Assembly: GCA_937949725.1 (NCBI GenBank) | Contig: CALECT010000048.1 | Coordinates: 6,626 to 70,625 of the forward strand | Origin: an uncultured Pseudanabaenaceae cyanobacterium | GTDB lineage: Bacteria; Cyanobacteriota; Cyanobacteriia; PCC-9006; JAAUQQ01 | Reading direction: 5' to 3' | Length of the DNA stretch: 64,000 bases | In this document: piece by piece, positions 1 through 61,007 of the stretch | How the letters are laid out: every line of letters begins with the position of its first letter | Position numbering within the stretch: position 1 is the stretch's first letter | Program-made: the position numbers and the translations under genes | Notes under the pieces: model-generated | What the model saw: the letters and a program-made list of their open reading frames with translations, nothing else | Database searches by the model: none | Told to the model about the DNA's origin: nothing

Positions 1-1404
1 CCCCACGTTATCTGCTCGACGTGAGAGAGAGGCAATGAGGATGTCTTTGGGCTGTTCGGCGAGGAAGCTGTAGAAGTTCTGGTAGCCCACGGTGACATAA
101 CCCGGTGAGATGAAGCGCTTGAGGGTCATGGGGTAAAGCGCCACGCTGGCTAGGAGTAAGCCAATGAGGCTGGTGGAGATTAGACGACGTTTGATGCGTC
201 CGGAACCGTTGAGTCCCAAACTTGCCCAGGTTGCGAGGGAGTGAATCCAGCTAGTGAGTAATATGGCTGCGCCGACAGCCAAAACGATGCGCAGGCTGTG
301 CTGCACGTAGCGGCTGGGTAAATGCAGCTTGAACAGCAGAAGATGGGCAATGAAGAACATGCCGATGGAGGTGAGGGTGAGCTGAGTCAAGATGCCCAGC
401 TTTTGAGTTTGCTTGAGGAGTGCTAAGCGAGGCTTGCCGAGGAAGAAGAAGGGAAGCAAGAGCCCCAATGCTTGGGTGGCTGGGGTGAAGAGTTTCCGGT
501 GGAGGATGCCGCTGCGGCCCCGGAGCCAATACTTGAAGAAATTGTCGCTGAAGAAGCTGGAGCGTCCGCCGGAGAAGAATTCTGGGAGCTGGAGGGCTTC
601 GGTTTTGGAGATGGTGGGGCCGTAGGCGGAGCTTTGCATGGCGTAGATTAGCAGGATGGCAAAGGCTGTGGCAAAGGCGATGAGACTGAAGCGGCGTTGG
701 GGGCGATCGCTCCAGGCCAGCTTTTTCCAAGGTTTAAGCCAAGGCAGCTCTTTGCGCCAGTGCACTAGGCGTAGAGTGAAGACGCCGAGGGAGAGCAGCA
801 AGGTTTGGGGGTAGAAGAGACCCTGGAGGATCAGGGTGATGAGGCAGGGGAAGAGTTTGTCTTGAACGACGTAGTAAAGAAAGGCGACGAGTAGTGGATA
901 GATGAAGGCGCGGGGAGTTGCAGAAGCAACATCTGAATTCATCCAGAGGGTTTGGTTGAGCAGGACGGTGCTGGTGAAGGCAGCAAAGGGAACAGGTAAT
1001 AGCGCGAAGGTGAGCCTGAAGCAGTAGAGGGTGATGATTAGGGTGATGGGCAGGGGCAGGAGCTTGTTGAAGGTGAAGGGCTCGATACCCAGCCAGGCAC
1101 CGATTTGGTAGAGCAGGCGGTAGCCCCAGGGAGCGACGGATTGGAAGTAGTCAGCGATGAGGTCGTTGGGGAATAGATCTGGATCGAGGAAGCGTTGCAT
1201 CCAGAAGACATGTTGGCGGGCATCATCTTGGACGGTGAAGGGAGCCGCGAAGGCTTGCTGGAGGGCGAGGCTGCTGTAGAGGATGCCAAAGGCGAAGCTG
1301 AGTGTGAGCCAGAACCAGACAATTTTTTTTCTGGGGTTGGGTTGGGTGAGGGACGCCCAGGAAAGTTGAGATAGGTGAGGTAGATGCAAGCGCTGGCTGG
1401 CCAT
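1..1404 (-). CDS. polytopic integral membrane protein; its C-terminal (3') end runs off the window edge
   Basis: Absent from the ORF track because it is open at the window edge. The reverse-strand frame starting at ATG 1404-1402 (MASQRLHLPHLSQLSWASLTQPNPRKKIVWFWLTLSFAFGILYSS...) stays open for all 468 codons down to position 1. It has many hydrophobic helices (LLPLPITLIITLYCF, FSLIAFATAFAILLIYA, LGLLLPFFFLG). Track ORFs 251-730, 413-625, 1038-1322 and 1223-1486 are alternative-frame artefacts. Confidence 0.6.
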   Translation of the reverse strand, partial: MASQRLHLPHLSQLSWASLTQPNPRKKIVWFWLTLSFAFGILYSSLALQQAFAAPFTVQDDARQHVFWMQRFLDPDLFPNDLIADYFQSVAPWGYRLLYQIGAWLGIEPFTFNKLLPLPITLIITLYCFRLTFALLPVPFAAFTSTVLLNQTLWMNSDVASATPRAFIYPLLVAFLYYVVQDKLFPCLITLILQGLFYPQTLLLSLGVFTLRLVHWRKELPWLKPWKKLAWSDRPQRRFSLIAFATAFAILLIYAMQSSAYGPTISKTEALQLPEFFSGGRSSFFSDNFFKYWLRGRSGILHRKLFTPATQALGLLLPFFFLGKPRLALLKQTQKLGILTQLTLTSIGMFFIAHLLLFKLHLPSRYVQHSLRIVLAVGAAILLTSWIHSLATWASLGLNGSGRIKRRLISTSLIGLLLASVALYPMTLKRFISPGYVTVGYQNFYSFLAEQPKDILIASLSRRADNVG

Positions 1405-1841
1405 TCAGGCGAAATTGACTAGGGGCTTTTTTATTTTCCCATGGGCGATCGCTTGGAAAATATTCAAACAGAACAGTAACTCTCAAATCATGGGACGATC
1501 ACCGATTTTCGGTATAAAAAAATACTCAACTGTAGGTTGATTGATGCACATAACTTAGCCGCAATTTTTATGGCTGTAATATTTTATGCTTCACCTGATG
1601 ACAAGTACTCTTACTATTCATTCACATAAGATTTCAACAAAATTAACCGAAATCTAGGTGTTCTCCACATACAATTCACACATGATTAATTAAGGGACCC
1701 TATTTATATATAGCTGAGACTGCTACAATTTGCCGACTACTTTTGTACTCCCAAACCCGTCACTTTGTGGTTTGAATTCTCTTGAAATCAATATCTTCAA
1801 ATGACTTTTGTAAGGAGCATTATCTGTTTTAACTTTTCGAA

Positions 1842-4457
1842 GTGGTCAAGCTGTGTGGTTTTAGAGAATCTTGCTCGCCTGTATGCGGTAAGCATACGAT
1901 TTATAATTCGCTGCGTGTAATGAAGAAAGATAGTAGGCCAATGCATTCTGATTTGATTGATGCAACTAGAGACGAAGTACTTCGGCTTTTAGGTAAGCAA
2001 GATGAGTTGCTTACTGATCTGTTAAAAGTGCCTGACTTAATTAGAGAAGATTCTCATGTTCAGGAGCATGGGACAACACGTAGAACTATTGATAACTGGC
2101 AGTCAATTCTCAGTAATGAAGCAAAGAAGGTTGGTCAATTAGAAATGGTTCTGACTGTCTTAGGAACAATGAAGGCGGGAAAATCCACAACAATCAATGC
2201 AATTGTGGGATATGAGGTTCTTCCAAACCGAAATTATCCGATGACGACTCTACCTACTCTTATCCGACACAAGGAAGGACAAAAAGAGCCGATTCTTCAT
2301 TTCCCGAAGCGCGTTCCAATCGAGGAAATGGTCGATCTCGTGAGAGAACGAGTCATAGCTTTAAAGAGAGAGGGGCAGCTTGATAGTGTCGGTTTATATG
2401 CTCAGGAAGATGGGCAAGAGCTTATAGATAAAATTCTGACATTTGAATTTGGGAACTTTAAGGAAACTTATATAGGTCAGGAAGAAATATTTCTCTTCTT
2501 GAAGTCTCTAAATGATCTGATGAGGTTGTCTCAGGATAAAAACATTGATGTGAATCCGCCCCTCGATGAGTACAAAAGCATAATAGATTTTCCATCCATT
2601 GAAGTTGAGTTTTTCCATCTTGCGCAATCAGCTAAGCTAACAAAAGGAAGCTTGGCTCTTTTAGACACTCCCGGTCCTAATGAGGAATTATTAGGACACA
2701 AACTCAGGAAAGTACTTACAGCACAATTAGAAAGAGCATCAGCAATTCTGGCTATTCTTGACTATACACAATTAGGTGGGGAAGCAGAAGGAGAAGTTAG
2801 ACGAGAAATTTCTCGCCAGGCCAATTCTCTTGAGGATCGCTCATTTTTTATAGTTAATAAATTCGATCAAAAAAACAAAAGAGGAATGAAAGCTGATGAA
2901 GTTAAGCGACGTGTTGCAGATGTTGTAATGGGAGGAAAAGTTTCTAAGGAGAGAGTTTATCCTGTCTCAGCACTATATGGCTATTTGTCCAACCGCGCAT
3001 TACGAGAATTAGCTACTCATAAAGGCTTACCAGAGGATGAAAATGATGGCTGGGTTGCTGACTTTGGGCAATTAGCAATGGGTGCATCCTGGGACCCTGA
3101 AGATATTTCTCTGGATGAAGTTAAAGTTGCAGCAGAAAGAGTTTGGAAATCTAGTCGCTTTGATTTACCCATTACAGAAGTCATCGTAAAAGCGGCAAAT
3201 ACTGCTGCTCTAGCTAGTATGCAGTCTGCTGCTGCTAAAATGATTGAAAATGGAAATCGTCTAGAAAATTTCTTAGAAATTCAGCGAGGTGGGTTAACCA
3301 AAACAGTTAGTGAGCTGCGTCACCTAATTGAGGGCTTAGCAAAGGATATCGCAGAAGTAGAGAAAGCCGAAGGTCAAGCTGAAAATGAATTGAATGGATT
3401 AATAGATAATTCATTGGAAATAGTTCAACTCCAGTACCAGACAACGAAAGAGAAACTAAGGCTTGCATTGGAAGGATACTTTCAGGAGGGAAAAAAACTC
3501 GAAGCTGATCAGCTGTTAGAAAGGACCAAAACAATAAAGGAAAAATATAATTTAAAGCTCAACCAAATGAGTACGCAAAGAAATCGAAGGTTCTCTGATC
3601 CATTCGCAAATTTTCATTTTTTTGGTGCAGAAGGAAAAGATGATAGAGAAGTTCAGCACCTTGAAGAGATGCTAGACTACCAGGCAAAAGAATCACTTGA
3701 TTTTGACCCCAAAAACCCTAAAATAAATTTTGAAACAGAACATGTTGCTAAATTTTTCTTAAGGCAGATAAATGAAAAAATAAGTTCCATTTTCAGTGAA
3801 TCGTCTCAAGAATTTGAATTGGCCCTTAAGGATTTATCTAAAGGGCTCGAAGAGACGATTCCTCAAATAATTGTAGAGGGAGTGGGGGAGATCTTAAAAA
3901 ATGCGCAAGAACGACTGAAAGACGAAGGCTTTTCTATTTCATTCGATGTTCCTGAGCCACGGTTTGAATCAGGAGAAATTGAAATCACAGAGCTTTTATT
4001 ATCTAGTGTAGAAGATTCTACTAGGACTACGGCAATAAGACGAAGAAGACAGAAAAGTGGTTGGCTTAATACTGCTAAGCGTTGGTTTGGTGATAAATTT
4101 GATGCTTACGATTGGGGGTACGAGGACTATGTCGATCATCAGACAGAGAGAATTTATGTAGTGGACATGACAAAAATCCAAGAAAGAGTATTGGATGGGC
4201 TAGATGACAGTGCAGAAAAGCTGAGTGACAGCAGTAAGCTTTTCTTTGACACAGTACTCAGACCATTAGTGGATAAATATTTTGAGGAGTTAACCAACTA
4301 TTTGGAAGATTTTAGGAGCAATTTGAGCGATGGAATAGATAAGCATAAACTTGATGAGCAAGCTCAGGAGATGTTGATGCAGAGTATCCTAGCTTTAAAG
4401 GAACGCACTGAGTTGCATACACAAGATGTGCTTGCGGTAAAAAACAACTTGACTTGA
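1842..4457 (+). CDS. bacterial dynamin-like GTPase (BDLP / Dynamin_N family)
   Basis: 871-aa ORF with a GTG start at 1842; the ATG at 1920 (MKKDSRPMH) is a plausible true start. G1 P-loop GTMKAGKS at 2163-2186, G3 DTPG at 2664-2675, G4 NKFD at 2856-2867. The GTPase domain is followed by about 500 aa of helical/coiled-coil-like sequence, as in dynamin-like proteins. Confidence 0.85.
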   Translation: MVKLCGFRESCSPVCGKHTIYNSLRVMKKDSRPMHSDLIDATRDEVLRLLGKQDELLTDLLKVPDLIREDSHVQEHGTTRRTIDNWQSILSNEAKKVGQLEMVLTVLGTMKAGKSTTINAIVGYEVLPNRNYPMTTLPTLIRHKEGQKEPILHFPKRVPIEEMVDLVRERVIALKREGQLDSVGLYAQEDGQELIDKILTFEFGNFKETYIGQEEIFLFLKSLNDLMRLSQDKNIDVNPPLDEYKSIIDFPSIEVEFFHLAQSAKLTKGSLALLDTPGPNEELLGHKLRKVLTAQLERASAILAILDYTQLGGEAEGEVRREISRQANSLEDRSFFIVNKFDQKNKRGMKADEVKRRVADVVMGGKVSKERVYPVSALYGYLSNRALRELATHKGLPEDENDGWVADFGQLAMGASWDPEDISLDEVKVAAERVWKSSRFDLPITEVIVKAANTAALASMQSAAAKMIENGNRLENFLEIQRGGLTKTVSELRHLIEGLAKDIAEVEKAEGQAENELNGLIDNSLEIVQLQYQTTKEKLRLALEGYFQEGKKLEADQLLERTKTIKEKYNLKLNQMSTQRNRRFSDPFANFHFFGAEGKDDREVQHLEEMLDYQAKESLDFDPKNPKINFETEHVAKFFLRQINEKISSIFSESSQEFELALKDLSKGLEETIPQIIVEGVGEILKNAQERLKDEGFSISFDVPEPRFESGEIEITELLLSSVEDSTRTTAIRRRRQKSGWLNTAKRWFGDKFDAYDWGYEDYVDHQTERIYVVDMTKIQERVLDGLDDSAEKLSDSSKLFFDTVLRPLVDKYFEELTNYLEDFRSNLSDGIDKHKLDEQAQEMLMQSILALKERTELHTQDVLAVKNNLT

Positions 4458-4461
4458 TGGA

Positions 4462-5397
4462 ATGACAAAAAAAGAAAGTCTCAGCAACAGCAATTCTCGG
4501 CTGTCAATCCTTACTTTGCAGAATATGCACCCCCAGATTAGGGAAAAGTGTATTTTTGACTATATAAATGGGCTTGAAGTATTGGAAGACCATTTGAGAG
4601 TTAGAAGTAAGAGCAATGAGCAGTTCTTCGGTAGAGTTTGGGAGTCCATAACTGGTCAAGCAATATCTCGCCAGCAACTGGTAGACCAAAATATTACAAC
4701 TTCACTGAACAGTGTTGCGATATGGCTGCAATCGCTTCAGCTTGAAAAGGCTGAAAGTGATTTGGCTATTTCTCATTTAGCAGATAAATTGTTGGAGACT
4801 CGTACAGCACTAGTGAATCAGAGAGGAGAACATAAAGCGCTTGCTGATAGATTGCATAATTTCTCATTGTATGTTTCTTCTCAATTGTCAGATTTAAAGA
4901 TATGCCTTTCTAATGTGGATGCTGCAAGACTAGCTAGTTCTCATTTAGAACAAGTGTTCGACAAATGGGAAGCAGGTCGCCTAGAGAAATATCCTCCACT
5001 CATTCGATTGTTTTTAACAATAGATGAATTACATTGGGGAAACTTTGGTACTTTCTTTCGTTTGTCTCAGAAAGAGGACGAGAAAGTACGCTTAAAACAT
5101 CAGTTAGTTGATAAATCTATTGTTCAAATGAAGAAAGATTTAGGGAAAGATCTTTCTAAACTTATGCTCTCGCAAGATTGGTTGTCTCCTATCCACAAGT
5201 TGTCGCCAGACTCTAAAGAAGCTGTACTTTATTTGAGTGATTGGGCTAGTCCTTCAAATGAACCAATTATTTCTGCAATGAGGTATGCAGCTTTGCCTGA
5301 ACAATATTTTCCTCATGATATGGGAGATTTTCCTTATGTATTGTCTGGAAGGCAAGTTATCAATCATATGATTTATGAAAACAACAATAGGAAATAG
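4462..5397 (+). CDS. hypothetical protein; possible RdcB/YjcZ-like partner of the dynamin-like GTPase
   Basis: 311-aa ORF starting 4 nt after the dynamin stop. I recognise no catalytic motif. The family suggestion rests only on size and on its position directly 3' of a dynamin-like gene, as in the E. coli yjdA(rdcA)-yjcZ(rdcB) pair. Confidence 0.6.
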   Translation: MTKKESLSNSNSRLSILTLQNMHPQIREKCIFDYINGLEVLEDHLRVRSKSNEQFFGRVWESITGQAISRQQLVDQNITTSLNSVAIWLQSLQLEKAESDLAISHLADKLLETRTALVNQRGEHKALADRLHNFSLYVSSQLSDLKICLSNVDAARLASSHLEQVFDKWEAGRLEKYPPLIRLFLTIDELHWGNFGTFFRLSQKEDEKVRLKHQLVDKSIVQMKKDLGKDLSKLMLSQDWLSPIHKLSPDSKEAVLYLSDWASPSNEPIISAMRYAALPEQYFPHDMGDFPYVLSGRQVINHMIYENNNRK

Positions 5398-5416
5398 TCT
5401 TGCTATTGTCTAAATT

Positions 5417-6388
5417 ATGCCATCAAACCTTTGTCGAGTTGGTCTGGTTTTGTCTGGAGGTGGTTCTGTAGGCGCTTATCATATCGGAATCCTTAAGTAC
5501 CTCGTGGAGCATTCTATTAGAGTTGATGCTCTTGCTGGAGCAAGCATTGGTGCCTTGAATGGCTCTATCATAGCTAGCTCGTCAAGTCTCGATAGTGCGA
5601 CAAAAAAGCTAGAAGAAATTTGGAGTTTGCTCGCGAATAACCATCCTCTTGAAGATCGTGACTCTTCAAATATTTATAAGATTTACAAGGTACTTAAAGA
5701 ACTCCTGTTATCTCCTAACAATATAGGTTTCTTTGATGATCATATGCTTCGCCAAATCCTCAAAGACTATTTGAATGTCTACAATTTGAATTCTGGAATT
5801 CCTTTTTATGTTTCTGCATATCAAAGTGAAGGTAGCTTGTTAGATATCTCCAAAGCCCTTCTTGGAAAGATGAATTTGAATAATACTCTTCCTTCCAATT
5901 TTTTTCACGTTCAATCGATGCATGGTACTGAGCAAATTAATGCTATTTTGGCCTCGGCATCTATTCCTCTAATTTTCAGAGCAAAAAAAATCGGGGGTAA
6001 TTATTATGCTGATGGAGGAATTGGTGGTATGAAGAGTGCACAGGGTAATACACCAATTACACCATTGATTAAACATGAGAGATGTTCTCATATTATTGTC
6101 AATCATTTAGGTGATGGTAGTTTTTGGAATAGACATGATTTCCCAGAAACAACAATCTTAGAAATACGACCGGGCAGGAATATTACACGAGATGGACTTG
6201 CCAGAGATCTTTTAGGTTTTAAGCCTATTAATATTAATTCATGGATTGAGCAGGGGTACGAAGATGCTTATAGATGCTTTAGTAATTTAGGGTCTGCATT
6301 ATCAAGTATAAAGATTGCAGATGCTGCTAGAGAAAAAAGAAACTTGTCAATAGATAGACTAAATGATGATGATTTTAAAGTATTTTGA
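5417..6388 (+). CDS. patatin-like phospholipase
   Basis: 323 aa. Oxyanion-hole motif GLVLSGGGSVGAYHIG, nucleophile elbow GASIG (5537-5551) and catalytic Asp in YYADGGIGG (D at 6011-6013). Starts 19 nt after the preceding stop. Confidence 0.9.
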   Translation: MPSNLCRVGLVLSGGGSVGAYHIGILKYLVEHSIRVDALAGASIGALNGSIIASSSSLDSATKKLEEIWSLLANNHPLEDRDSSNIYKIYKVLKELLLSPNNIGFFDDHMLRQILKDYLNVYNLNSGIPFYVSAYQSEGSLLDISKALLGKMNLNNTLPSNFFHVQSMHGTEQINAILASASIPLIFRAKKIGGNYYADGGIGGMKSAQGNTPITPLIKHERCSHIIVNHLGDGSFWNRHDFPETTILEIRPGRNITRDGLARDLLGFKPININSWIEQGYEDAYRCFSNLGSALSSIKIADAAREKRNLSIDRLNDDDFKVF

Positions 6389-7842
6389 GCTCAGGCTTTC
6401 ATCCTACTTTGCTCTTCCATTTAATTATTCATTTAGAAATAATGTCTGTCATTGCCAAGCACTTAGTCTGTAGTGACTGTCGAGTCTAGTAGAGTTTTTG
6501 AGTAAACAGATTGATTTTCAGGATCAGGTGACTGGAGGTTTATGGATGCCTAACAATCTCCCTTAAATGTCTAGACTTATACTTTTTGGCTCTCAACCAG
6601 TAGCTTCATCAGGGCTATTTCACGTTAATGCAAGGAAATCTAAGGCTACCAACCTCTTGTTGGAGATCGAGAGGTCGTTAGATGGAGGATTACTGGTTGA
6701 AAGCATCTTCCGATGAACGTGAAATACCCCTGGTAGTTTCATCGTCATGTCTAAATTATAGGATATCTTGTCTCCAAGCTCTAAGCTAGCTTCGCGCTCA
6801 ATATAGCATTTCCATGCTTGGTGAGGTACATTTTGACCTCTGAAAGCCTTGTATAGCAAGGAAGAATCCAAAGCTGGTTGCATCTCAAAGGTTCAGGAAA
6901 CGCTATATTCTAAGCTTGCTAAAGGATACCTCGATTAATTGCCAGATCTGCTTAAAAGAGAGGCTAGAATTATTGAGATCTCGTTGACGATCACATCAAA
7001 TTTTAAATTAGTAGAGGTGCTCTAAAGACAAAACTTCTATGACAGTTTATCCACCTATTTCCTGATCTAATACAGTATAGATACTGCCATGACTACCTTG
7101 ACTAGACAAGACTCAATGTCATAACGCCCTTGAAGTAAGGTTTGGCTGGTCAGGGGAGATGGTATGGAACATTTTTTATGCCATCATCCCTAAATAACTA
7201 ACAACGTATCGCAATCAAAATAGGATTACCTCTTACTGAGCCCACCATTCTAATCTGGACAGCAGTTACCTCCGTAAGTAATTCAGGGCGAGATGCAAAA
7301 AAAGGAGACCTCCTTGGAGATCTCCTAAGCACTCAGGGGTTATTCGTTCAGACAAGTTAACAGCAGCAGAGTAAGCAATTCGTTGAAATCAACAACGGCG
7401 CTTAGGGAGCTGCGGAGTTGGCTCCTCATCTGAGCCGTAGGCTCCTTGCCCGCAGCTCAGGTGATGTCTGTCTTTCGATGTCTACAGAATGCAATGTCGG
7501 GCTGAGTGAAATCTTGGAGAAAACTGAGCGTTGAATTGCGATCGCCTGAGGATTTGCCCAGACTGGCTGAGGATTGACTGAGAGCGCTGTGGAAAAAGCT
7601 GGCAAAAGCCTTATTCCCAAGGGCTTTTAGCGCTATAGCATTGGACTGTAGTGGTCCAATTAATCATGGAGCTGATAGAGGTGAACAAATGGATGGGAGT
7701 TCTCCTTCGCGATCGCTTCAAGCCCAGAGGCAGCAATCCGCTGGGAGCTGAGTGACAGTCACACTCTCTATTTCTCAATTCCTGTGTCTTCTCGCTGCCC
7801 TATCTTGACGGCATTATCCTGACCAAGCGATGTTGCTAACGG

Positions 7843-8538
7843 ATGGTGAGGGGTGAGACCCATCATTTAGGCGAAACCATCGCTGTTTTGCCCTTGAAAA
7901 TGGGAATTCTGAAGCCAGGTTATCTATCCCGAGGAGAGTCCATCGTGGCGAATCTAGAATTGTTGGAGCGCTTGAAAGCGATCGCTGGCAATGGCAGCAC
8001 TGACGCGATCGCTCAAGATCTCTCCCAGCTAGATTTTGCTGGAGCAGACCTATCCGGCCTCAACCTCAGCAGCGCAAACCTGCGTGGCGCCAACTTTAGT
8101 GGGGCGAACTTAAGTGGCACTGACCTGAGCGGTGCGAACCTCAGTCAAGCTCAGCTCCAAGGCAGCAACCTCAGCGGGGCAGAATTGCAAGGTGCAAACC
8201 TCAGTGGTACAGACCTGAGCGATGCCGAGCTTCGCAATGCCCGCTTGGATGGTTGCGACCTCCGCCGGGCCAATCTCCAGGGCAATGACCTCAGCGAGGC
8301 AACGCTCTACGAAGCCGACCTGAGCGAAGCCAATTTGAATGCGGTGAAGTTGAGCCGCGCGAATCTAGGCCGTGCCAACTTTAGCTGCGGCAATTTGACT
8401 GATGCGGACCTAGGTGAAGCTCGCTTGGCTGGGGCCAATTTTAGCGGAGCAAACTTAGGCGGCGCAACGCTTAGCCACGAAGCGAGTGAACGCTTGAGCC
8501 GCAGCGCCGCCAATCTGCAAGGGGCCGTTTTCATCTAG
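7843..8538 (+). CDS. pentapeptide-repeat protein
   Basis: Long run of A(D/N)LSG-type pentapeptides (ANLRGANFSGANLSGTDLSGANLSQAQLQGSNLSGAELQGANLSG...). The start is uncertain: GTG 7843 or ATG 7900. Confidence 0.85.
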   Translation: MVRGETHHLGETIAVLPLKMGILKPGYLSRGESIVANLELLERLKAIAGNGSTDAIAQDLSQLDFAGADLSGLNLSSANLRGANFSGANLSGTDLSGANLSQAQLQGSNLSGAELQGANLSGTDLSDAELRNARLDGCDLRRANLQGNDLSEATLYEADLSEANLNAVKLSRANLGRANFSCGNLTDADLGEARLAGANFSGANLGGATLSHEASERLSRSAANLQGAVFI

Positions 8539-8941: not shown

Positions 8942-11533
8942 TTAGCTTTGCCCCATCAGCACAAAGGCCCCCCAATCCGCTGGGTCAGGATACTCCTCCA
9001 TGGTGGACAGCATTGCTTGGCGTAATGCCTGCCCCTTGTCCGGCTCGTCTTGCAAATTGACGTAAAACTCCTCCATCAGTTCTGCCGTGGAAAAGTCCGC
9101 CACGGGCCAGAGGGAAGACAAGATGCTGGGTACACCTGCCGCAAAGAAAGCGCGGGAGAGACCCACTACACCGTCGCCTGTAATCGCGCCGCGAGCGGTG
9201 TCACAGGCACTGAGAACTGCCAGGTCTGCCCGTAGTTTCAAGTCCATGATTTCTTCGGCGGTGAGGAATCCATCGCCGCCTTGGGCCGTTAGGGCTAGGG
9301 AGCTATTGAGACCATGTTGCTCGTCGAAGAGACCGTGGGTGGCAAAGTGAAGGATGGGAGCGGTCAGCATTTCCTGGCTAACCTTGCCTTCGTGGGCGAC
9401 TTCCCCAATTAACGGTTGAGTCTGCAACAGTGGAGAAATCTGCTGAGCTTCAAACTCTGACCCAGGTAAAGGTGCAAGTTGTTGCGGTGTTCTGCCCGGC
9501 ACTGCGGATAGGTGAGGCATGATGGGATTGCCCACGACCAGGGCTGCGACAGCTTCTGTTGCGGCTTGGCGAGTGGACTCAGCCACTTGCTTCTTCTTTT
9601 CGGTCAAGGCCAGGGCTTGAATGGAGGTGATGATGCGGGGGGTGTGCTGTTCAACCAAGAACTTTCGCTGCTGATCCTGGAGGGCTGGGAAAGGCACCAT
9701 CAGCAATGCCTTGTGGGGCACAATCACTACGGTTTCTTCGGGGTTGGCAGGTAGGGCATCTGCGATGGGCTCGATCAAGACCCGGTGGAGTTCTTGGAGT
9801 GCCCTATAGTTCTTGGTTTCTGCCTGCTTTGGTTCTGGCAGACTGCTTGCGATTAGTTGAGCTTGGGCTGCATTGAAGGCAAAGCCTCCACGAGTGTTGC
9901 CCCGGCTACTAATTTGTCCTCGCTGGGTAGCAACCCACTGGGCTAAGGAGCCATCGAGATTATCTAGGTCTTGCTGGTGAAAGGTGATTGTTCCGCTGGG
10001 GCGAACAACCCAGGTTAGTAAGCGCTCGGGAGCTTCAACATTGGGGGCATTGGAGGCCTCAATGTAGTTTTGCGTCAAAGGTTGGATGACTGCATATTGA
10101 AGCAGTGTCGCGTTTTCTGCGCGGGCGATCGCTCGAATCTTTTCTAGATTTGGAGGAGCTGAAATAGCTGCATGGTGATGATGACCGTTCACGACTGCAT
10201 GGTCGCTGTGGTTCTTGACGAGGCGCTGGGCCAATAGCTCATTGAAGGCACGGGCGCGACTTTGCTCCGAAACTACAAGGGCTTCTTCAACGCGGTCCTG
10301 GGCAATCAGGGTTTCTTGGAGGCGATCGTAGAGGGTCACATGGGCATCGAAGAGGGTGACTTTTTGTTGGTCCCACAACCCATGGCGAAGGTTCTCGAAG
10401 GATGCGATCGCCCCTCTAAATTCTGTCTCTGCTTGCTCCAGTTTGTTCTGCAACAAGTACACCTCGCCTCGCTGGCGCTGAAGCATGATGTTGGTCATGG
10501 CATTGCCCAGTGGTCTGGCTGGGTCATCCACGTTGGCATAGTCTGCTAGGGCCAGGTCAAACTCGCCTGCTTGAACGTGGGTTTGCCCCTTGAGCAGGTG
10601 CATGCGGGCTAGGACAGAGTTGGGCTGACCTTGGGCGATCGCTAGGGTCAAGATGCGCTGGGCCTTATCTAGCTGCCCTTGTTTGAGGGCGATCTGGCCT
10701 AGCTGTAGGCGTGCGGTCATTTGTCCCCGCACATCTTTAATGGCGAGGGATTGGTTGAGAGCCTGGGTATAGGCCATCTCTGAATCTTCCCAGCGGCTCA
10801 TTTCCTGGTAAATCCAGCCCAGGCGTTGCAATATACGACTTTGGCCAATGCTGTCTTTAATGCTGCGGTAGCCCACCAAAGCCTGGCGATAGTCCTTCTC
10901 CGCCGCTTGCATTTGCCGCAGGTCCCAGTTGACATCGGCACGAAGCTGGAGAGCACGGGCGCGATCTACGATGTCGCCATCTAGGGCCAGAGCAGACTCC
11001 GCAGTGGCCAGGGCATCGGCATAGCGGCCAAGGCTGCGATGGAGACTTCCCAGCAGTACTTCATATTGCAAGATGTCATTGGCTGTTTTAAGGCCTGGCC
11101 GCGCTTGGGCTAGTAGGGCTTCAGTCTCTGGAAATTTGCCTGTCATTAGGCGCAGTTGAGCTTGGCCGAGAGCATGCTGGGCTGCTAGGGAAGGAGACAG
11201 TGGTCCTAAGTCTTTGGCTTGATTGAGCAACGCTTGAGCAGGCCCCCCTTGACCCAGCCGACATTCCACTGTGGAGGCATCAATTAGAATGGCTTGCTGC
11301 AACGCAATATCCCTGGCTGCTTCTGCTTGCTGGAGCTCTTGCTGGAGGGCAATTCTTGCAGCGTTAAAGTTGCCTTGGCGCAGTAATGCTTGACCTGTTG
11401 TAACCGTTGCGGCTGCTTCTTGGGCCTCTTGAGCTGTGGCTGCAACCGGCGCAAAAGTGGTGAAGAGGGGGGCTGTGAAGCCCAGAAGCGCGATGCCAAA
11501 AAGATTTGCGGTCCAAAAACGGGAGAGCTGCAT
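8942..11533 (-). CDS. TPR-repeat + CHAT-domain (caspase-fold) protein with an N-terminal signal peptide
   Basis: The likely start is ATG 11533 (MQLSRFWTANLFGIALLGFTAPLFTTFAPVAATAQE); the track ORF extends to 11596. TPR-like repeats fill the central part. The C-terminal CHAT dyad is ILHFATHG ... LAVLSACDTARG. Confidence 0.85.
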   Translation of the reverse strand: MQLSRFWTANLFGIALLGFTAPLFTTFAPVAATAQEAQEAAATVTTGQALLRQGNFNAARIALQQELQQAEAARDIALQQAILIDASTVECRLGQGGPAQALLNQAKDLGPLSPSLAAQHALGQAQLRLMTGKFPETEALLAQARPGLKTANDILQYEVLLGSLHRSLGRYADALATAESALALDGDIVDRARALQLRADVNWDLRQMQAAEKDYRQALVGYRSIKDSIGQSRILQRLGWIYQEMSRWEDSEMAYTQALNQSLAIKDVRGQMTARLQLGQIALKQGQLDKAQRILTLAIAQGQPNSVLARMHLLKGQTHVQAGEFDLALADYANVDDPARPLGNAMTNIMLQRQRGEVYLLQNKLEQAETEFRGAIASFENLRHGLWDQQKVTLFDAHVTLYDRLQETLIAQDRVEEALVVSEQSRARAFNELLAQRLVKNHSDHAVVNGHHHHAAISAPPNLEKIRAIARAENATLLQYAVIQPLTQNYIEASNAPNVEAPERLLTWVVRPSGTITFHQQDLDNLDGSLAQWVATQRGQISSRGNTRGGFAFNAAQAQLIASSLPEPKQAETKNYRALQELHRVLIEPIADALPANPEETVVIVPHKALLMVPFPALQDQQRKFLVEQHTPRIITSIQALALTEKKKQVAESTRQAATEAVAALVVGNPIMPHLSAVPGRTPQQLAPLPGSEFEAQQISPLLQTQPLIGEVAHEGKVSQEMLTAPILHFATHGLFDEQHGLNSSLALTAQGGDGFLTAEEIMDLKLRADLAVLSACDTARGAITGDGVVGLSRAFFAAGVPSILSSLWPVADFSTAELMEEFYVNLQDEPDKGQALRQAMLSTMEEYPDPADWGAFVLMGQS

Positions 11534-11955
11534 AGCCAACTGTGTTGATCTCGGTGAGAGGTGGCGTTGATCGAGTGATGAAAATGCACAGAACAACGGA
11601 TGGGAGAGGGGGCTTGGCTAGGCGCTTGCTAGCGTTTCGCGGATTTCCTCTGACCAGTCCCAGACTCAAACGCCGGACAGGGTCCAGTTGGTAGATATAT
11701 GGTGTAACCCAAACGAATCATTCCCAGGGGGATGATGACGTTTAACAAAATTCAGGGAGTTCTCAGGTTGATGATTTAATTGCGGCTAGAAGCTAATTGG
11801 GATGGGCGTTTGAGGTGGTACTTTCCTGTTGCTAAAAGCTGGAAGCGTTGTGCGCCTGCTGCTGAAGGCAGCGATTTGCAGACCCTCTGGGCATCGATTA
11901 GCATGAAGGGGATTAAGCATTTCAGCTTGACGCCTTGAGCTGACAGGGAAAGCGC

Positions 11956-12741
11956 ATGATCGCCACCCAGCCGAACCCCCAGTCGCCGCAGCCTATTGCG
12001 CCTACGCAGATGCTGCTATCGGGTAATTGCTTGGGAGACTTTTCAAGGCCTAGTCCAGGATTTGGCATCCTAGCCGGGACAGCAGGGCTGATTCAAAGTC
12101 CGCAAAGAGAGTCTGCAATGCCTATTCCGTTGTTTGGCATTCTACTGGCTGATAACGATAGAGTAATGGTTCTAGGTTGTCTCATTTGAGAATGAATCAG
12201 CCCTGGCCGGGACAGCGGCTGACTTATAACGATGGCGCATTGGAGATTTGGATGCTTTTACCTCCCCATGATTCGGTATAAGAAGTTTTTGGCGCGTCTG
12301 GTGGAGATTTTGACGGAGGAGTTGGATTTAGAGATTTGTAGCCTGGGCTCTTGCACTTGGAATCGTTGAGATTTGGCTAAGGGGTTTGAGGCGGATGAAT
12401 GTTATTACATTCAAAATGAGCCTGTGATTTGGAGGCGGATGGAGATTGATTTAGAGGTGGACCCGCCGCCGGATTTGGCGGTTGAGGTGGATATTACGAG
12501 TTTGTCGATTCCTCGTCTGCCGATTTATGCGGCTTTGGGATTGCCTGAGGTGTGGCGGTTTGATGGGGAGCGGTTGGAGTTTTTGAGCTTGGTGGCTGGG
12601 GAGTATGGTGCGGTAGAGCAATCTTTGGTGTTACCTGGGGTGAGGCCCGATGATTTGATTATGTTGCTAGGGCAAGTCTCGGAGATGGGGGAGACGAGCT
12701 GGGCCAAATATGTGCGGCGTTGGATGCGAGAGAAGTTTTAG
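11956..12741 (+). pseudogene. Uma2-family (DUF820) endonuclease pseudogene, disrupted by a MITE, frameshifts and nonsense codons
   Basis: Uma2-like segments lie in different frames: ...MLLSG / VIAWETFQGLVQDLAS / PGQRLTYNDGALEIWM / KKFLARLVEILTEELDLEICSLGS / DLAKGFEADECYY...PPDLAVEVDITS...GLPEVWRFDG. There are in-frame stops at TAG 12071-12073 and TGA 12367-12369, plus the insertion at 12084-12204. Track ORF 12373-12741 is only the C-terminal piece. Confidence 0.75.
12084..12204. mobile_element. miniature inverted-repeat element (MITE, about 121 bp)
   Basis: Perfect 12-bp terminal inverted repeats agggctgattca (12084-12095) and tgaatcagccct (12193-12204). They are flanked by an 11-bp direct duplication gccgggacagc (12073-12083 and 12206-12216). 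Excising the element restores the Uma2 reading frame ...LAS(W)PGQRLTYNDG. It has no coding capacity. Confidence 0.8.
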
Positions 12742-12936
12742 TAGAGCTAATTATTTTTCAATACTCACATAAATTGGATAAGCTATAATGTCATCTCTCA
12801 CAGACTTTTTTGCTCATTCTGACAGGCTATTTCGTTGTAAAAAATTAGTTCTCTACCACATGAGAAGTTCGTAATATTTCAGTCAATTTGAAGGACTTTG
12901 TTCGGTTATCTTTCCATAATCAGCAATACTTATATT

Positions 12937-14850
12937 CTAAAGGATATGAGATAGGCAAGTACTTACATATTCTGCGTAACTTAAGTATTCACTGCGATCT
13001 ACAGGCCAAGCAAGAGTATCTGCATGAGAGATAGGATTTTTATTACGCCTATCAAATAAATTTCCTACTTGGACACATACCTCATGAGGAATAGTCTTAC
13101 TGTTTAAGAATTTCACTGCATCTTTAGCATTGTATTTTTTCTGCTTTTTAGATGGTGATTCTAATACATAGCAAATCGCATGAACCTCGTTGAGCAAGTG
13201 ATTTAAAGCTACTGAATAATGTCCTCGTCTTTCAGCTTTAATTCGCAATCGAATTTGCTCTAGAATATTAGGGTTATTAGAGATTCGAGCTATTTGCTTT
13301 TCCGTTAAATCAAAATATCCTGGCTTTGTTCTTGATGGATTTTTTCGAGAATATATGTCTATGATTGGCTTCATATGAATATTTTTCTTTAAAATTCTTA
13401 TGAGTGGCTTTGAATCGAACTCTTCTTGGCATAAATAGCTCAAAACCAAATGAGCATCACGAGAAGAAATTGATGTCTTTCTCAATAAGAAATCGGAGAA
13501 ATTTTTCGATGATTCCGAACTTTTCATCAGTATTATCAGAATTTCTCTTGGCTGTGCGATAACCAAGTCGAAATTGAATTCATCGAAGATGCTAGCAATT
13601 TTGTCTTTATTCTTAGGCTGTTGAAGTAACGCAGAAACTGATTTGTCATAAACCTGCTTTAATACTTCGTCGTCTAAATCACTCCTATCATCAAATGTCG
13701 GATCTAATGATCGTCTCTTTAATCTTTCAAGCTGTTTGAATATACGATCTAGCTGTCCTTGTGGTGTTTGAGAGTCTTCATCATCTGGTATCTCATAGCC
13801 TGGAGATGTCCGCTTTAAACTTTTTAGCAATTTTTGCTCATCATATTTCTGACAAAGCCAATAGAGCTGTGTCTTTGTATTGAGCCTTAATCCAAATTCG
13901 GAATAAAGTACATCTGCCAAAGTATTTGCTATTCGAGCGACATATACTTCTTGCTCAGCTGGCTTTAAGGAATTAGAGAACTCAATTGTTATATAAATAT
14001 CATCCATATAACGATCAATAAAATACGTAGAAATATCTTTAGAGTTTTTCCTCAGCTCCTCATCAAAGCGTAGATCTGCAAAAACCAAATACAGATATCC
14101 AATGTAGCTACATGTAATATCATTGTCAAACTGAGGTATGCCAGTTTCTTTCTTCGTAAAGTATTCAAATAAATTTAGAATTTGCTCTTGGGTAATTGCA
14201 TCAAATCTCATCTCCTTTTTAATACTAGGTTTCACATAGTGATCTAATAATTCCACTAGGTTACGGACTTGAATTTCCTCGTAGTAATTTTGGATGTCAA
14301 GATGTATGACGACTTTTTTGTTTTTTTCATCTTGAACATGCTTTCTGACCTGACGACGAAAGTCTTGATAGTGTTTTTTGTACCAAACACTATCGTATTT
14401 CAATACAACCTTATTTTGAGAGGAGTCAAATTTTAGACTTCCTCCATAATAGGAATTTATTTGACTATGGGGAAAATAGTGCTCTTGCAAAAAATCCTGA
14501 GAGAGCTTCACTATATACAGTCCTACGGAATAGCATAAAACTCTTGCAGGATAGGTAAAGAAGCAATATTTTCGAAGGCCTAAATTTGCTTTTGGAATGG
14601 GATATGAATGTATGGAGAACTCATTCTGAAGCCCATAAAATAGATTGTTTTCTACTTTCGATGTGAAATATTTTTGTGTGGCAACTTTACGCTTATATGT
14701 TTGAGTTAAATTCTCATAGTAGAACATACTCAACTTATTAAAGTGTCTGTTCCCTTGCTTCATTGAGAGCTGAAAGCCTAACAAACTGACGGCATTCTCC
14801 CAAAAGACAAAATCTAAAAAATAACCAACTTTTGCCAGACTTTGAGACAT
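12937..14850 (-). CDS. defence-type reverse transcriptase with a C-terminal HEPN-like motif (AbiA-like)
   Basis: RT motifs: VVIHLDIQNYYEEI (14272-14304 region), GIPQFDNDITCSYIGYLYLVFAD, and the catalytic YMDD in RYMDDIYI (13999-14010). There is a roughly 340-aa C-terminal extension containing DRRNKNPISH, i.e. an Rx6H HEPN-type motif at 13024-13050. The likely start is ATG 14850 (MSQSLAKV); the track ORF begins at TTG 14898. It is the only gene in AT-rich island 2. Confidence 0.8.
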   Translation of the reverse strand: MSQSLAKVGYFLDFVFWENAVSLLGFQLSMKQGNRHFNKLSMFYYENLTQTYKRKVATQKYFTSKVENNLFYGLQNEFSIHSYPIPKANLGLRKYCFFTYPARVLCYSVGLYIVKLSQDFLQEHYFPHSQINSYYGGSLKFDSSQNKVVLKYDSVWYKKHYQDFRRQVRKHVQDEKNKKVVIHLDIQNYYEEIQVRNLVELLDHYVKPSIKKEMRFDAITQEQILNLFEYFTKKETGIPQFDNDITCSYIGYLYLVFADLRFDEELRKNSKDISTYFIDRYMDDIYITIEFSNSLKPAEQEVYVARIANTLADVLYSEFGLRLNTKTQLYWLCQKYDEQKLLKSLKRTSPGYEIPDDEDSQTPQGQLDRIFKQLERLKRRSLDPTFDDRSDLDDEVLKQVYDKSVSALLQQPKNKDKIASIFDEFNFDLVIAQPREILIILMKSSESSKNFSDFLLRKTSISSRDAHLVLSYLCQEEFDSKPLIRILKKNIHMKPIIDIYSRKNPSRTKPGYFDLTEKQIARISNNPNILEQIRLRIKAERRGHYSVALNHLLNEVHAICYVLESPSKKQKKYNAKDAVKFLNSKTIPHEVCVQVGNLFDRRNKNPISHADTLAWPVDRSEYLSYAEYVSTCLSHIL

Positions 14851-15019
14851 AAAAATTGCGTGAAAGCCAAAGGCGTAGAAAATGAAAACGCCCAACAAAA
14901 TATAGGGTTGTCTGTCTCGTTAAATATAGCTTACGAGCAACATATTTTACTACAGTTGAGATTCCAGACTTACTACTGCCACGCGATAACAAAATACTTG
15001 TTGGTTAGATTCGATAGCA

Positions 15020-15697
15020 TTACGAAACCCTTAATTGCTGCATTAACCAATTCGCTGCTGCTGTATTTGTCTCAGTCTCTAGCCGCTCGATCGCCTGCTC
15101 CACCAGCCTCAGCGGCAACCCAGCTAAAACCCGCGACGCCTCAATCACCTCATAGCTGCCCCGCTCCGTCAAACCAAACCCAAACAACCGCCGCCCTTTA
15201 ACATCAATCACCCAATACTCAGAAATGCCCAAACTGGCATAGAGCTGCTTCTGCTCATCCAAATCCAGGCTCAACGTTGTATCTCCAATTTCCCCCACCA
15301 AATCCGGCAGGCGATGGCGAGTTGTACTAATCCGCCGAGGCTCACCTGGCTGCCACCGAGGAATATCATCACCGCGATACAGCACCAGATCTGGCGCACA
15401 GGCTTGAACGTCTGGCTTCTCAATTAGGCAACGGCCATAGGATTGCAACACCTCCTCTGGATGCAGCATCGCCCAGAGGAAAAAAATAGCCGTCATAAAA
15501 TCACTGAAAGCAGCGTGATTCGGACCTTCTTTCCCCATATCAGCCCAGAGCCAGCCATCATTAAACGAAATTTTTTGGCAATCTAAATCTGTGTCATCTC
15601 GCAACGCCACATAGTCCTGCCAAGTCGCGCCATGGCGTTGCAAATCCAGCGCTTGAGCAGGTGGCGTATTTCGAGAGCGTTCCAACGAGATTGTCAT
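15020..15697 (-). CDS. Uma2-family (DUF820) endonuclease, apparently intact
   Basis: Contains ...ATWQDYVALRD..., LPDLVGEIGDTTLSLDLDEQKQLYASLGISEYWVIDV. The likely start is ATG 15697 (MTISLERS); the track ORF extends to 15787. Confidence 0.75.
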   Translation of the reverse strand: MTISLERSRNTPPAQALDLQRHGATWQDYVALRDDTDLDCQKISFNDGWLWADMGKEGPNHAAFSDFMTAIFFLWAMLHPEEVLQSYGRCLIEKPDVQACAPDLVLYRGDDIPRWQPGEPRRISTTRHRLPDLVGEIGDTTLSLDLDEQKQLYASLGISEYWVIDVKGRRLFGFGLTERGSYEVIEASRVLAGLPLRLVEQAIERLETETNTAAANWLMQQLRVS

Positions 15698-15790
15698 CGT
15701 AGTAGCCACAGGGCTAGGGAGACCATTGCCTAGAGCCATCATATCGCAATAAAAAACCGGACCTCCCAAAGGAAGCCCGGCCATCAATCA

Positions 15791-25159: not shown

Positions 25160-26038
25160 TTGGGTCGCGCTCGCCCCATGCCCTATCGCCATCCCGGCTA
25201 TGCCTTCCTTGAGCATCACGGTCCCCTCAGTGGCGAGGCGGATGTGGAAGCCTATGGCAATTTTTTGCGGCGATCGGCCCAGCTCGACGACGATCGCCCC
25301 CCGGTTTCCCTAGAGCGTATTTACACCTGCTTCGGCATTCCCATTCCCCGCCAGGCTCCCCTTCAAGATCAGCAGGGCATTTTGGTAGATGGCGACAGCG
25401 GCTTGATTTTGATTAAGGAAGATGACCCCCTGGTGCGGCGGCGCTTTACGGAGGGTCATGAGCTGATGGAGTTGCTGTTTGACGCGCATTATCAGCAGGA
25501 AGGGTTGCCCCAAGAGACCGCGCCTCAACGGGGCGGGTTCAATCCTGAGGGGGCTTATAAGGAACGGTTGTGCGATCGCGGAGCCGCTGCTCTGCTGATG
25601 CCGGAGGCTTCATTTCGGGCGCGCTTGCAGATGCTCAGCATGTCGTTGCAGACGGGGCGAGCTTTGGCAAAGGATTACCAGACTTCCCTGGTGGCGACGC
25701 TTTTAAGGATGGTGCAGCTCAGCGGCGGAGCCCATGCCCTGGTGATGTGGCGTTTGGGGTGGGCCACGGCGGCGGAGAAGGCGAAGGGGAGTGAGCCACC
25801 GCTGTTGAGGCCGGGTTGGCAGGCGTTTAGTGCAAGTTGGTCTGTGGGGCGGTTAGGGCGGGAGCAGGTGGCGGGGCCGGGGTCGGTGGTGGCGATCGCG
25901 CCGCAGTTAGGTCAGCCTCTTACGGGGACGGAGGTGGTGATGGTGGGTGGGGTGGAGCGGCGTTGTCATTTGGAGGTGTTGCCGTTGCGAGGGGGGCGGC
26001 AGCAGTGTGTGTTGGCGTTGGTGCATTTGTTGGAGTAG
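25160..26038 (+). CDS. ImmA/IrrE-like (DUF955) protein with a degenerate metal-binding motif
   Basis: It immediately follows the XRE gene, the classic XRE-ImmA pairing. The motif region reads FTEGHELMELLFDAHY, so HELME replaces the canonical HExxH. The 3' third is strongly G+T-rich. Confidence 0.5.
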   Translation: MGRARPMPYRHPGYAFLEHHGPLSGEADVEAYGNFLRRSAQLDDDRPPVSLERIYTCFGIPIPRQAPLQDQQGILVDGDSGLILIKEDDPLVRRRFTEGHELMELLFDAHYQQEGLPQETAPQRGGFNPEGAYKERLCDRGAAALLMPEASFRARLQMLSMSLQTGRALAKDYQTSLVATLLRMVQLSGGAHALVMWRLGWATAAEKAKGSEPPLLRPGWQAFSASWSVGRLGREQVAGPGSVVAIAPQLGQPLTGTEVVMVGGVERRCHLEVLPLRGGRQQCVLALVHLLE

Positions 26039-35468: not shown

Positions 35469-36028
35469 GTTTAATTTTCAGAAGAAATGGATCAATAAGA
35501 AGTTGTCTTTAACTCAAAATATCTATCTTCAGCTAGCTGACAGAATCGCATTCTTTACCTTTGAAGTCGTCACCTAATGAACCCAAAACTTTGATTTTGA
35601 GAGAAAAGACACCCACATATTAAATGGGAGTCGGCTGGGTACTGGTCTGCTTCGTGGGGAGGATTTGCAATATCCGATGCTTAGTAAGGATTTCAGGGAC
35701 TTCTGCTTTAAAAGCTGCTAACCCTTGGCTGGACAAGGCTTTCATTCAAGCATCCCCTACTTTCCAGACCAGTGCAGTCGGCTAGAACAGCAGCCTTCCG
35801 ATTAGTCCTTACCGGTAAAGATATTTGTACAATAGATATCGATCATGAGTGAACTCCCTATCTTGATGCTAATAAGTAGAGAAGTGGAATGGATACAAAA
35901 GTCACAAAAATAAAAAAACAGACCTCTTATCAGAGCTCGAGAAATTCCATTAACTTAGACAAAGATTCAATCTTGTCCAGGGCTAATTCACTTTCAAAAG
36001 ACATAAACTGCAACCCTCATCCGATATC

Positions 36029-60918: not shown

Positions 60919-61007
60919 TTATAGTCTTATCTCTATTCATCTGTAGATTTTTGAAAATTAGGCTTGAAGAATTTGAGGTTATCTCTATAACTCAAACTCA
61001 ATAAGAC

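Follow-up and report, generated by a model that had tools for sequence, protein, structure and literature searches.

A mobile operon encoding a dynamin-like GTPase, a YjcZ/RdcB-family protein and a patatin phospholipase: a candidate GTPase-gated lipase in a cyanobacterial low-GC island

Several patatin-fold phospholipases are inactive until an activator engages them. CapV and CapE are gated by cyclic nucleotides, while VipD of Legionella and ExoU of Pseudomonas await the binding of a protein partner, which is the GTPase Rab5 for the former and ubiquitin for the latter. In the cyclic-oligonucleotide-based anti-phage signalling system (CBASS), the lipase is a dormant membrane-degrading effector that is switched on by a sensor module. 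GTPases of the dynamin superfamily, namely those of the Eleos system (LeoA/LeoBC) and DynA of Bacillus subtilis, have also been implicated in phage resistance. Here, we report on a 64,000-nucleotide (nt) stretch of DNA from an uncultured Pseudanabaenaceae cyanobacterium (contig CALECT010000048.1 of assembly GCA_937949725.1, positions 6,626 to 70,625 of the forward strand; hereafter, the window), which encodes in direct succession a dynamin-like GTPase, a YjcZ/RdcB-family protein and a patatin-like phospholipase (here, referred to as the trio). The three genes are one horizontally mobile operon, and their linkage is strict, ancient and specific to a single patatin subfamily.

The described proteins closest to the first two members of the trio are RdcA and RdcB of Escherichia coli K-12. 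RdcA is a "trigger enzyme" that senses guanosine triphosphate (GTP) with a Km of ~0.6 mM; regulation resides in its N-terminal GTPase domain, and DgcE, a diguanylate cyclase of the membrane, is bound and activated by the C-terminal domain (PMC6510439; PMC13463826). When GTP falls RdcA moves to the membrane, the alarmone (p)ppGpp competes with GTP, and RdcB binds RdcA and is needed for activation of the client (PMC6510439; PMC13463826).

Identity of the three gene products

The operon was initially picked out from the letters of the window by themselves. This original prediction described three co-directional open reading frames (ORFs) with gaps of 4 and 19 nt in an AT-rich island holding no other convincing genes, read the first as a dynamin-type GTPase and the third as a patatin with all of its motifs, and guessed from size and position that the second mirrors YjcZ/RdcB. 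Each of these points was borne out by the ORF list, composition and family searches described below. The features concerned are:

1500..7200, no strand: low-GC block without HIP1 sites that carries the operon (GC and HIP1 counts)
1500..1919, plus strand: AT-rich stretch 5' of gene 1, presumed promoter/leader (GC 0.34; TATAAT hexamer at 1902-1907)
1920..4457, plus strand: gene 1, RdcA/CrfC-type dynamin-like GTPase of 845 amino acids (aa); an alternative GTG start at 1842 gives 871 aa
4462..5397, plus strand: gene 2, YjcZ/RdcB-family partner of 311 aa, with a Pfam YjcZ match
5417..6388, plus strand: gene 3, patatin-like phospholipase of 323 aa with a Patatin match, the presumed effector

The ORF list agrees exactly with the predicted spacing, the gaps being 4458-4461 between genes 1 and 2 and 5398-5416 between genes 2 and 3. 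The ATG at 1920 is the likelier start of gene 1, since gene callers use it on three metagenome contigs that are identical to the window across the operon and since a database record exists for the exact 845-aa protein.

Gene 1 belongs to the dynamin superfamily, matching Dynamin_N (PF00350) at 3.5e-16 (60.1 bits, cutoff 27) and carrying the GTPase motifs GTMKAGKS (G1), PMT(T) (G2), DTPG (G3) and NKFD (G4). It resembles RdcA/CrfC over its whole length in the match to the NCBIfam CrfC model NF007368 (E = 5.9e-131, 438 bits, model positions 11-712 of 742), which does not reach the equivalog cutoff of 1146 bits; on these sequence scores, gene 1 is a homologue of RdcA/CrfC and not an equivalog. With BLAST, the first 511 residues align to K-12 RdcA at 38% identity (1e-104) and the remainder is scarcely similar; when the two proteins are compared by halves, the identity is 41% in the N-terminal sensor half and 14% in the C-terminal half. 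The same holds for all trio dynamins, which share 36-56% of residues with K-12 RdcA in the N-terminal half and 11-24% in a C-terminal half that is ~50-90 residues shorter in K-12 RdcA. Motifs G1 to G4 and the equivalents of RdcA K82 and T103 are conserved across all trio dynamins. A shared sensor acting on a different client would give precisely this pattern of a conserved N-terminal and a divergent C-terminal half, and we presume that the former is the GTPase/sensor of gene 1 and that the latter binds the client. CrfC function requires an N-terminal motif that binds the beta clamp, 41-QLALP (PMC6374313), which neither gene 1 nor any other trio dynamin has at the aligned position. Neither a transmembrane segment nor a hydrophobic paddle was found in gene 1; none of the three trio proteins has a transmembrane segment, hence they are predicted to be soluble like RdcA and RdcB.

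Gene 2 matches the Pfam family YjcZ (PF13990) at 2.6e-31 (109.4 bits, cutoff 27, model positions 2-241 of 272), and all of the gene 2 homologues found carry this domain. Its direct alignment with K-12 RdcB reaches 22% identity over only 114 aa. The AlphaFold2 model (mean predicted local distance difference test score, pLDDT, of 82) consists of helices throughout: one long helix at the N-terminus and a C-terminal domain that is confidently predicted. No significant structural relative was found, the best Foldseek E values being 0.65 in the PDB and 0.74 among the viral proteins of BFVD; PDB sequence matches were coiled-coil noise, and several weak Foldseek matches were to lipid-binding helical domains, none of them significant, from which nothing is drawn here.

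Gene 3 matches Patatin (PF01734) at 9.9e-30 (104.6 bits, cutoff 27.7). Its motifs are GGGSVG of the oxyanion hole, GASIG with the catalytic Ser43, and DGG with the catalytic Asp199; the glycines of GGGxxG, Ser43 and Asp199 are invariant in 121 homologues. The AlphaFold2 model (pLDDT 88, predicted template-modelling score 0.87) has PlpD, CapV, CapE, VipD and ExoU as its nearest folds in a structure search.

Linkage, distribution and genomic setting

The association of the three genes was assessed in a metagenome scan seeded with generic patatin motifs, in which the retrieved patatins grade from 48% to 25% identity. Wherever the patatin scored at least 222 bits against the subfamily profile, YjcZ was located directly upstream (18/18 loci), and a dynamin was detected in all 14 of those loci that had any sequence past the YjcZ gene. 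By comparison, all 62 lower-scoring patatins were without YjcZ or dynamin (0/62 exceptions; Fisher p = 2.8e-18). This contrast of 18/18 against 0/62 excludes chance adjacency of the patatin, and gene 3 belongs to a patatin subfamily that is dedicated to this operon. In 18 of 23 loci, with start codons chosen heuristically, 1-20 nt are shared by the YjcZ and patatin frames, and the three proteins diverge in step (r = 0.84-0.89 for pairwise divergences, 19 loci).

The original prediction turned in part on whether the genes co-occur outside this genome and on whether gene 2 is related to RdcB. In addition to the PF13990 membership of gene 2, the trio proved to be widespread in the same order. The arrangement dynamin-YjcZ-patatin on one strand was found in each full-length context examined around patatin homologues, namely in Tolypothrix, a Methylococcales metagenome-assembled genome, Acinetobacter rudis and Enterobacter asburiae, and the identical order was found around YjcZ homologues in 12 species-level genomes, including Brasilonema, three Scytonema, Nostoc, Methylobacter and other methanotrophs. 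It also occurs in Allochromatium, Pseudomonas putida, Yersinia kristensenii, Budvicia aquatica and Methylomonas koyamae, on two Nostoc plasmids and in an E. coli integrative island. The trio therefore spans Cyanobacteriota and many Gammaproteobacteria, and a YjcZ-patatin variant without the dynamin is present in Campylobacterota. On enterobacterial plasmids (including those of Klebsiella and Enterobacter), YjcZ and patatin are adjacent in essentially every record, the sole apparent exception being a patatin split by an IS3 element.

In E. coli, a megablast search with the E. coli trio gave matches in 2,613 of the 5,426 complete genomes, with coverage of at least 80% in 2,443 (about 45-48%), and up to five copies per genome that are almost all chromosomal. 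The E. coli copies constitute an allele family different from that of E. asburiae; they were recovered with the E. coli query, while megablast of the E. asburiae trio against the E. coli genomes gave no match. The Prokaryotic Genome Annotation Pipeline names the products "dynamin family protein", "diguanylate cyclase regulator RdcB family protein" and "patatin-like phospholipase family protein". No YjcZ homologue was found in the phage collections INPHARED and IMG/VR, a result that is neutral for a role in defence.

In K-12, rdcAB is followed by proP and no patatin, and no other form without a patatin was seen. The YjcZ family is a small one, accounting for 518 clusters at 50% identity among 1.84 billion proteins. 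Neighbour joining of 132 YjcZ proteins puts K-12 RdcB on a long branch of its own, next to the clade of proteobacterial trio proteins. Only one of the 146 representatives retrieved from the best 150 of the census list was closest to K-12 RdcB, a count that concerns the proteins and not their gene context and that comes from a census profile built from trio-type sequences. The patatin-less form is likely to be a minor derived lineage on this sequence evidence, and its derived status stays at likely because the census profile is trio-based.

A number of loci depart from the common architecture. On plasmid pACRY43158 of Aliarcobacter cryaerophilus (L032, 5254-8944), two proteins of 161 and 397 aa precede YjcZ-patatin in place of the dynamin, and a profile search detected no dynamin within ~7 kb on either side; a Shedu nuclease gene and integrases are in the vicinity. 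Several methanotroph loci have an extra small ORF (99-204 aa) between dynamin and YjcZ (L005, 5572-6186; L030, 7617-7916). Such extra small ORFs between or after the trio genes gave no significant Pfam match and a single, far sub-threshold match to Wzy_C; judging from its position, the ORF may be a fourth component in the methanotroph clade. Gaps of 400-750 nt separate dynamin and YjcZ in L015, L022 and L024, and in the first two the dynamin also looks frameshifted, which may explain the gaps. The dynamin gene looks truncated or frameshifted in L014 and L017 (both Scytonema) as in L015 and L022, with YjcZ and patatin intact, and these broken genes could reflect either sensor decay or assembly error. 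In A. rudis (L007, 2162-9101), the trio is preceded by a WYL regulator of the CapW/BrxR type and by a truncated 491-aa paralogue of the dynamin in which every GTPase motif is retained. The order is rearranged on metagenome contig Ga0315904_10022043 (L046), where YjcZ is followed by the dynamin, a gap and then the patatin. At the level of single proteins, YjcZ is fused behind a DUF3944 and Ubiq_cyt_C_chap domain in P0311, an N-terminal dynamin fragment is joined to YjcZ in the E. coli protein P0136, probably via a deletion or frameshift, and P0081 is a 521-aa patatin of the trio subfamily with an N-terminal extension.

In the window, the operon is located in a block (~1500-7200) with a GC content of 0.34-0.43, compared with 0.52-0.59 in the flanks. 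The cyanobacterial palindrome HIP1 (GCGATCGC) occurs 49 times in the window and not once in this block, where 4.4 sites are expected. Low GC marks four blocks of the window, the second of which holds a defence gene:

~1500-7200, no strand: low-GC block 1, carrying the operon
~12700-15000, no strand: low-GC block 2
~35000-38000, no strand: low-GC block 3
~60000-63000, no strand: low-GC block 4
12937-14898, minus strand: full-length defence reverse transcriptase of the AbiA type, 653 aa (PADLOC AbiA/DRT, E = 1.5e-85, model positions 3-591 of 595; no Pfam match)

HIP1 is absent from all four blocks, 14 kb in total (p = 5.6e-6), which is supportive and not independent proof, since HIP1 is itself GC-rich. 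Composition and the absence of HIP1 together point to a recent foreign origin of the operon block, and the genome appears to be native DNA interspersed with AT-rich cassettes of recent acquisition. No tRNA, Rfam match or convincing attachment (att) repeat was found at the block borders; the only direct repeat flanking the block, at 1436 and 7700, was considered as an island border and set aside, being built on HIP1 and probably due to chance. A scan of 1200-7900 for consensus promoters and terminators yielded fewer sites than it did in shuffled sequence, with no terminator in the intergenic gaps, and is uninformative either way. The block holds no further convincing gene, the only other candidate being an 87-aa ORF on the minus strand without a family match. 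This ORF lies in the 1.4 kb 3' of the patatin (6389-7842), a region without a convincing gene that also has nested inverted repeats at 6589-6732.

The AbiA-type reverse transcriptase is located ~6.5 kb from the trio, inside the second low-GC block without HIP1. Between the two islands, a large protein with TPR and CHAT (caspase-like protease) domains is encoded on the minus strand (8942-11596), and Uma2-family nuclease genes are nearby (15020-15787). Block 3 holds a 624-aa ORF without a PDB sequence match, and block 4 holds genes for a PaaK-like ligase and a methyltransferase. The window also encodes a protein with an IrrE/Peptidase_M78 domain (25160-26038, plus strand) as well as pentapeptide-repeat and DUF3685 proteins; like HIP1 and the Uma2 proteins, the latter two fit a cyanobacterial host.

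Proposed mechanism and its alternatives

By analogy with RdcA and RdcB, the RdcA/RdcB-type switch formed by genes 1 and 2 probably has the patatin, encoded alongside, as its client. The reading we favour, and hold to be somewhat on the probable side of even, is that the trio is a conflict-type operon in which the GTPase and YjcZ form a switch gating the cis-encoded lipase. At high GTP, the GTP-bound GTPase would be kept inactive in the cytosol. A drop in the GTP pool, a rise in (p)ppGpp or some other trigger would lead to GTP hydrolysis and release of the GTPase to the inner membrane; its C-terminal half and YjcZ would then assemble and activate the lipase, which would hydrolyse membrane phospholipids. 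The role of such a unit would be conditional self-damage in conflict, i.e. anti-phage defence of the abortive-infection type or a related function of mobile elements. The original prediction suggested that the GTPase and its partner may sense or remodel the membrane and control the lipase. Of these suggestions, the control of the lipase is retained in the form of GTP-state sensing and gating, which is better grounded because RdcA and RdcB are known for GTP/(p)ppGpp sensing and client activation; membrane remodelling is not among their known properties (PMC6510439; PMC13463826).

In the specifically abortive-infection version, the GTPase would read a phage-caused GTP collapse or (p)ppGpp rise and, with YjcZ, unleash the phospholipase on the cell's own inner membrane, and RdcA/RdcB of K-12 would be a domesticated, patatin-less offshoot of an older module; we put this forward tentatively, as a possibility that is rather less probable than even. 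That the trio forms one GTPase-gated lipase unit is much more likely than that it serves in defence.

Evidence for a conflict role comes from the surroundings of the trio, which frequently include defence or mobile-element genes. For the window copy, these are the foreign island and the AbiA-type reverse transcriptase nearby, and many of the homologues are carried by plasmids or integrative islands. The P. putida copy sits amid an MmeI-type enzyme, GmrSD, a BrxR regulator and a helicase, the Enterobacter copy adjoins an integrase and Mrr/PDDEXK nucleases, and the Aliarcobacter variant adjoins the Shedu nuclease. A Drt4 reverse transcriptase, a Mokosh-like helicase and a PDC-M37B/DolB protein adjoin three other copies. 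Regulators of the CapW/BrxR type, with winged helix-turn-helix (wHTH), WYL and WCX domains, are directly upstream in Acinetobacter and Enterobacter, and this regulator family accompanies defence systems (PMC9122601, PMC9122588, PMC11662680). In E. coli UMNK88 (L034, 9001-13354), the trio (WP_000544679.1, WP_000203531.1 and WP_000102676.1) is part of a CP4-type integrative island at tRNA-Ser beside ghrA, flanked on one side by the Cah autotransporter gene and on the other by genes for DUF932, an anti-restriction protein, RadC and CbtA/CbeA. Individual copies, among them those of P. putida, Enterobacter and Aliarcobacter, are clearly in defence islands, and several others lie amid ordinary genes. 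When the four ORFs closest to each of 36 trio loci (two per side) were compared with ORFs sampled likewise around unlinked patatins, 97 PADLOC families were matched at E <= 1e-10 around the trio versus 8 around the controls, and strong matches were seen in the trio set only. Some matches in this test were cross-matches, of NifS to DndA and SspA models and of TnpB to Cas12f models.

Several considerations weigh against the conflict-type reading. We infer the contact of the lipase with the GTPase/YjcZ pair from genetics only, as we do the trigger, the direction of control and the defence role; the pair could restrain the lipase instead of activating it, although activation is the direction adopted here. 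That gene 1 senses GTP is an extrapolation from RdcA, to which its sensor half is 41% identical. Several copies of the trio are found in ordinary neighbourhoods (nif, ars, FecIR/TonB and ribosomal-protein genes). In the neighbour comparison, one reverse transcriptase yields 30 of the 97 families and the result depends on the threshold; counted as distinct proteins at 1e-10, the trio and control sets are similar and their difference is not significant. The control loci are from other taxa, and three of the strong matches were placed on specific ORFs. With both sides weighed, a defence role is put at roughly even odds.

The same features can be read in other ways. One is that the switch responds to starvation or stationary phase, when GTP is low and (p)ppGpp high, and turns on the lipase to a controlled and non-lethal extent, so that membrane phospholipids are remodelled or recycled as part of a housekeeping-like stress response. 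This accords with E. coli RdcA being a sensor of growth phase and energy state (PMC13463826), with the copies amid ordinary metabolic genes and with the predicted solubility of the trio proteins, which is shared with RdcA/RdcB. It fits poorly with a patchy, mobile distribution (on plasmids and in integrative islands, with as many as five copies in one E. coli genome), with the foreign low-GC block in the window, with the CapW/BrxR-type regulators and defence genes that adjoin several copies and with the cytotoxic, activator-gated enzymes among the closest structural relatives of the lipase, and we regard it as rather unlikely. The mobile setting would suit a second explanation, in which the GTPase/YjcZ pair holds a toxic lipase in check and the operon stabilises its carrier element or excludes competitors in place of acting against phages; the trio is often on plasmids or integrative islands beside toxin-antitoxin and anti-restriction genes, and its gene junctions overlap as in toxin-antitoxin operons. 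Classical addiction modules are, however, small two-gene units with a labile antitoxin, whereas an 845-aa GTPase with all catalytic motifs conserved suggests signal sensing over simple neutralisation, and many chromosomal copies lie outside recognisable mobile elements. Addiction or conflict between elements is accordingly an improbable account of the trio.

Still less probable is a function in membrane remodelling, vesicle release or virulence, as proposed for LeoA of enterotoxigenic E. coli, with the dynamin reshaping the membrane and the lipase assisting the release of vesicles or toxin. Gene 1 is in the dynamin family, E. coli copies are found in pathogenicity-type islands beside the Cah/Ag43 autotransporter, a genome paper lists the trio genes as "membrane modeling genes" (PMC13182975) and LeoA has been described as related to outer membrane vesicles (PMC9950537). 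Yet no membrane-binding element is known from the RdcA lineage, which works as a switch in signalling (PMC13463826), and gene 1 is without a hydrophobic paddle or transmembrane segment. Furthermore, the trio is common in free-living cyanobacteria and methanotrophs, and the LeoA/LeoBC models match the homologues weakly at best and the window protein not at all. Finally, genes 1 and 2 might regulate a diguanylate cyclase as in K-12, with the patatin as an unrelated downstream passenger. The homology of both genes to RdcA/RdcB speaks for this, but it is strongly disfavoured by the strict subfamily linkage (18/18 versus 0/62), by the overlapping frames and co-divergence of the three proteins, and by the conservation of the arrangement across phyla. 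Moreover, the difference between the trio GTPase and K-12 RdcA falls in the client-binding C-terminal half, and the sole patatin-less form seen, rdcAB of K-12, is an isolated long branch.

A GTPase/YjcZ switch that gates the lipase would provide a mechanistic handle, namely a GTPase sensing the nucleotide pool and wired to a lipase, on a very common unit of undescribed function. When the family is taken in its full sequence diversity, linkage to a patatin appears to be the rule and the cyclase-regulating pair of K-12 the exception, which suggests that one sensor module has been rewired to different clients. Were the operon a defence system, it would represent both a new type of sensor, in which GTP state is read by a dynamin-like protein, and a new way to gate a patatin effector.

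Comparison with described systems

The original prediction knew of no described system of this composition. The databases and literature that were searched are consistent with this view, yet the trio is common, being present in almost half of the complete E. coli genomes under generic names. In PADLOC-DB v2.0.0, which covers known and candidate systems, the trio matches none; YjcZ has no match there, and the dynamin and patatin give marginal cross-matches only. No anti-phage name is attached to the trio proteins in NCBIfam (June 2026). The literature on dynamin with patatin, on YjcZ/RdcB and on cyanobacterial dynamin-like proteins contained no description of the trio, with subscription journals thinly covered, so that an earlier account is possible, and two surveys of WYL-regulated defence do not mention it. 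The only mention found is that of "membrane modeling genes" in an E. coli O118 island (PMC13182975).

Membership of three described systems was rejected. An Eleos system comprises two or three dynamin-like genes and includes neither a lipase nor YjcZ; the trio resembles it in having a dynamin-superfamily GTPase and in occurring in islands, but has a single dynamin, and the LeoA, LeoB and LeoBC models do not match gene 1 and match the E. coli and P. putida homologues weakly (9e-6 and 5e-3). With CBASS, the trio shares a patatin fold with a Ser-Asp dyad, and CapV and CapE are both among the top structural matches of gene 3. Unlike in CBASS, the upstream module is a GTPase pair and not a cyclic-nucleotide synthase, gene 3 scores 22.8 bits against the CBASS lipase model (cutoff 200; 2.7e-5 in PADLOC), and no cyclase of the CD-NTase family was found in the operon or among its annotated neighbours; the low lipase score and the missing cyclase exclude it from CBASS. 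As for CrfC in the clamp-binding sense, gene 1 is below the equivalog cutoff and lacks QLALP, and its absence led us to reject this assignment.

The nearest parallel is the K-12 pathway of RdcA, RdcB and DgcE. Genes 1 and 2 are homologous to rdcA and rdcB and share their order and tight junctions, with the dynamin gene directly followed by YjcZ; both dynamins have the same GTPase motifs, with the key Lys and Thr, and transmembrane segments are lacking throughout. The logic is likely to be common as well, with an N-terminal GTPase that senses and a C-terminal domain that acts with YjcZ on a client enzyme. The K-12 client, however, is an unlinked MASE1 diguanylate cyclase, whereas the putative client here is a patatin lipase of the same operon, and the divergent C-terminal half (14%) together with the linked patatin argues for a client other than DgcE. 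A precedent for lipase activation by a protein partner is offered by VipD and ExoU, both of which are matched significantly by the gene 3 model. Those enzymes are secreted, activated by the host and much larger, with extra domains, whereas the putative activator and the lipase of the trio would be bacterial, cytosolic and co-encoded. The novelty of the operon would thus lie in a GTPase switch of the known RdcA/RdcB type that appears to have a new, cis-encoded phospholipase as its client.

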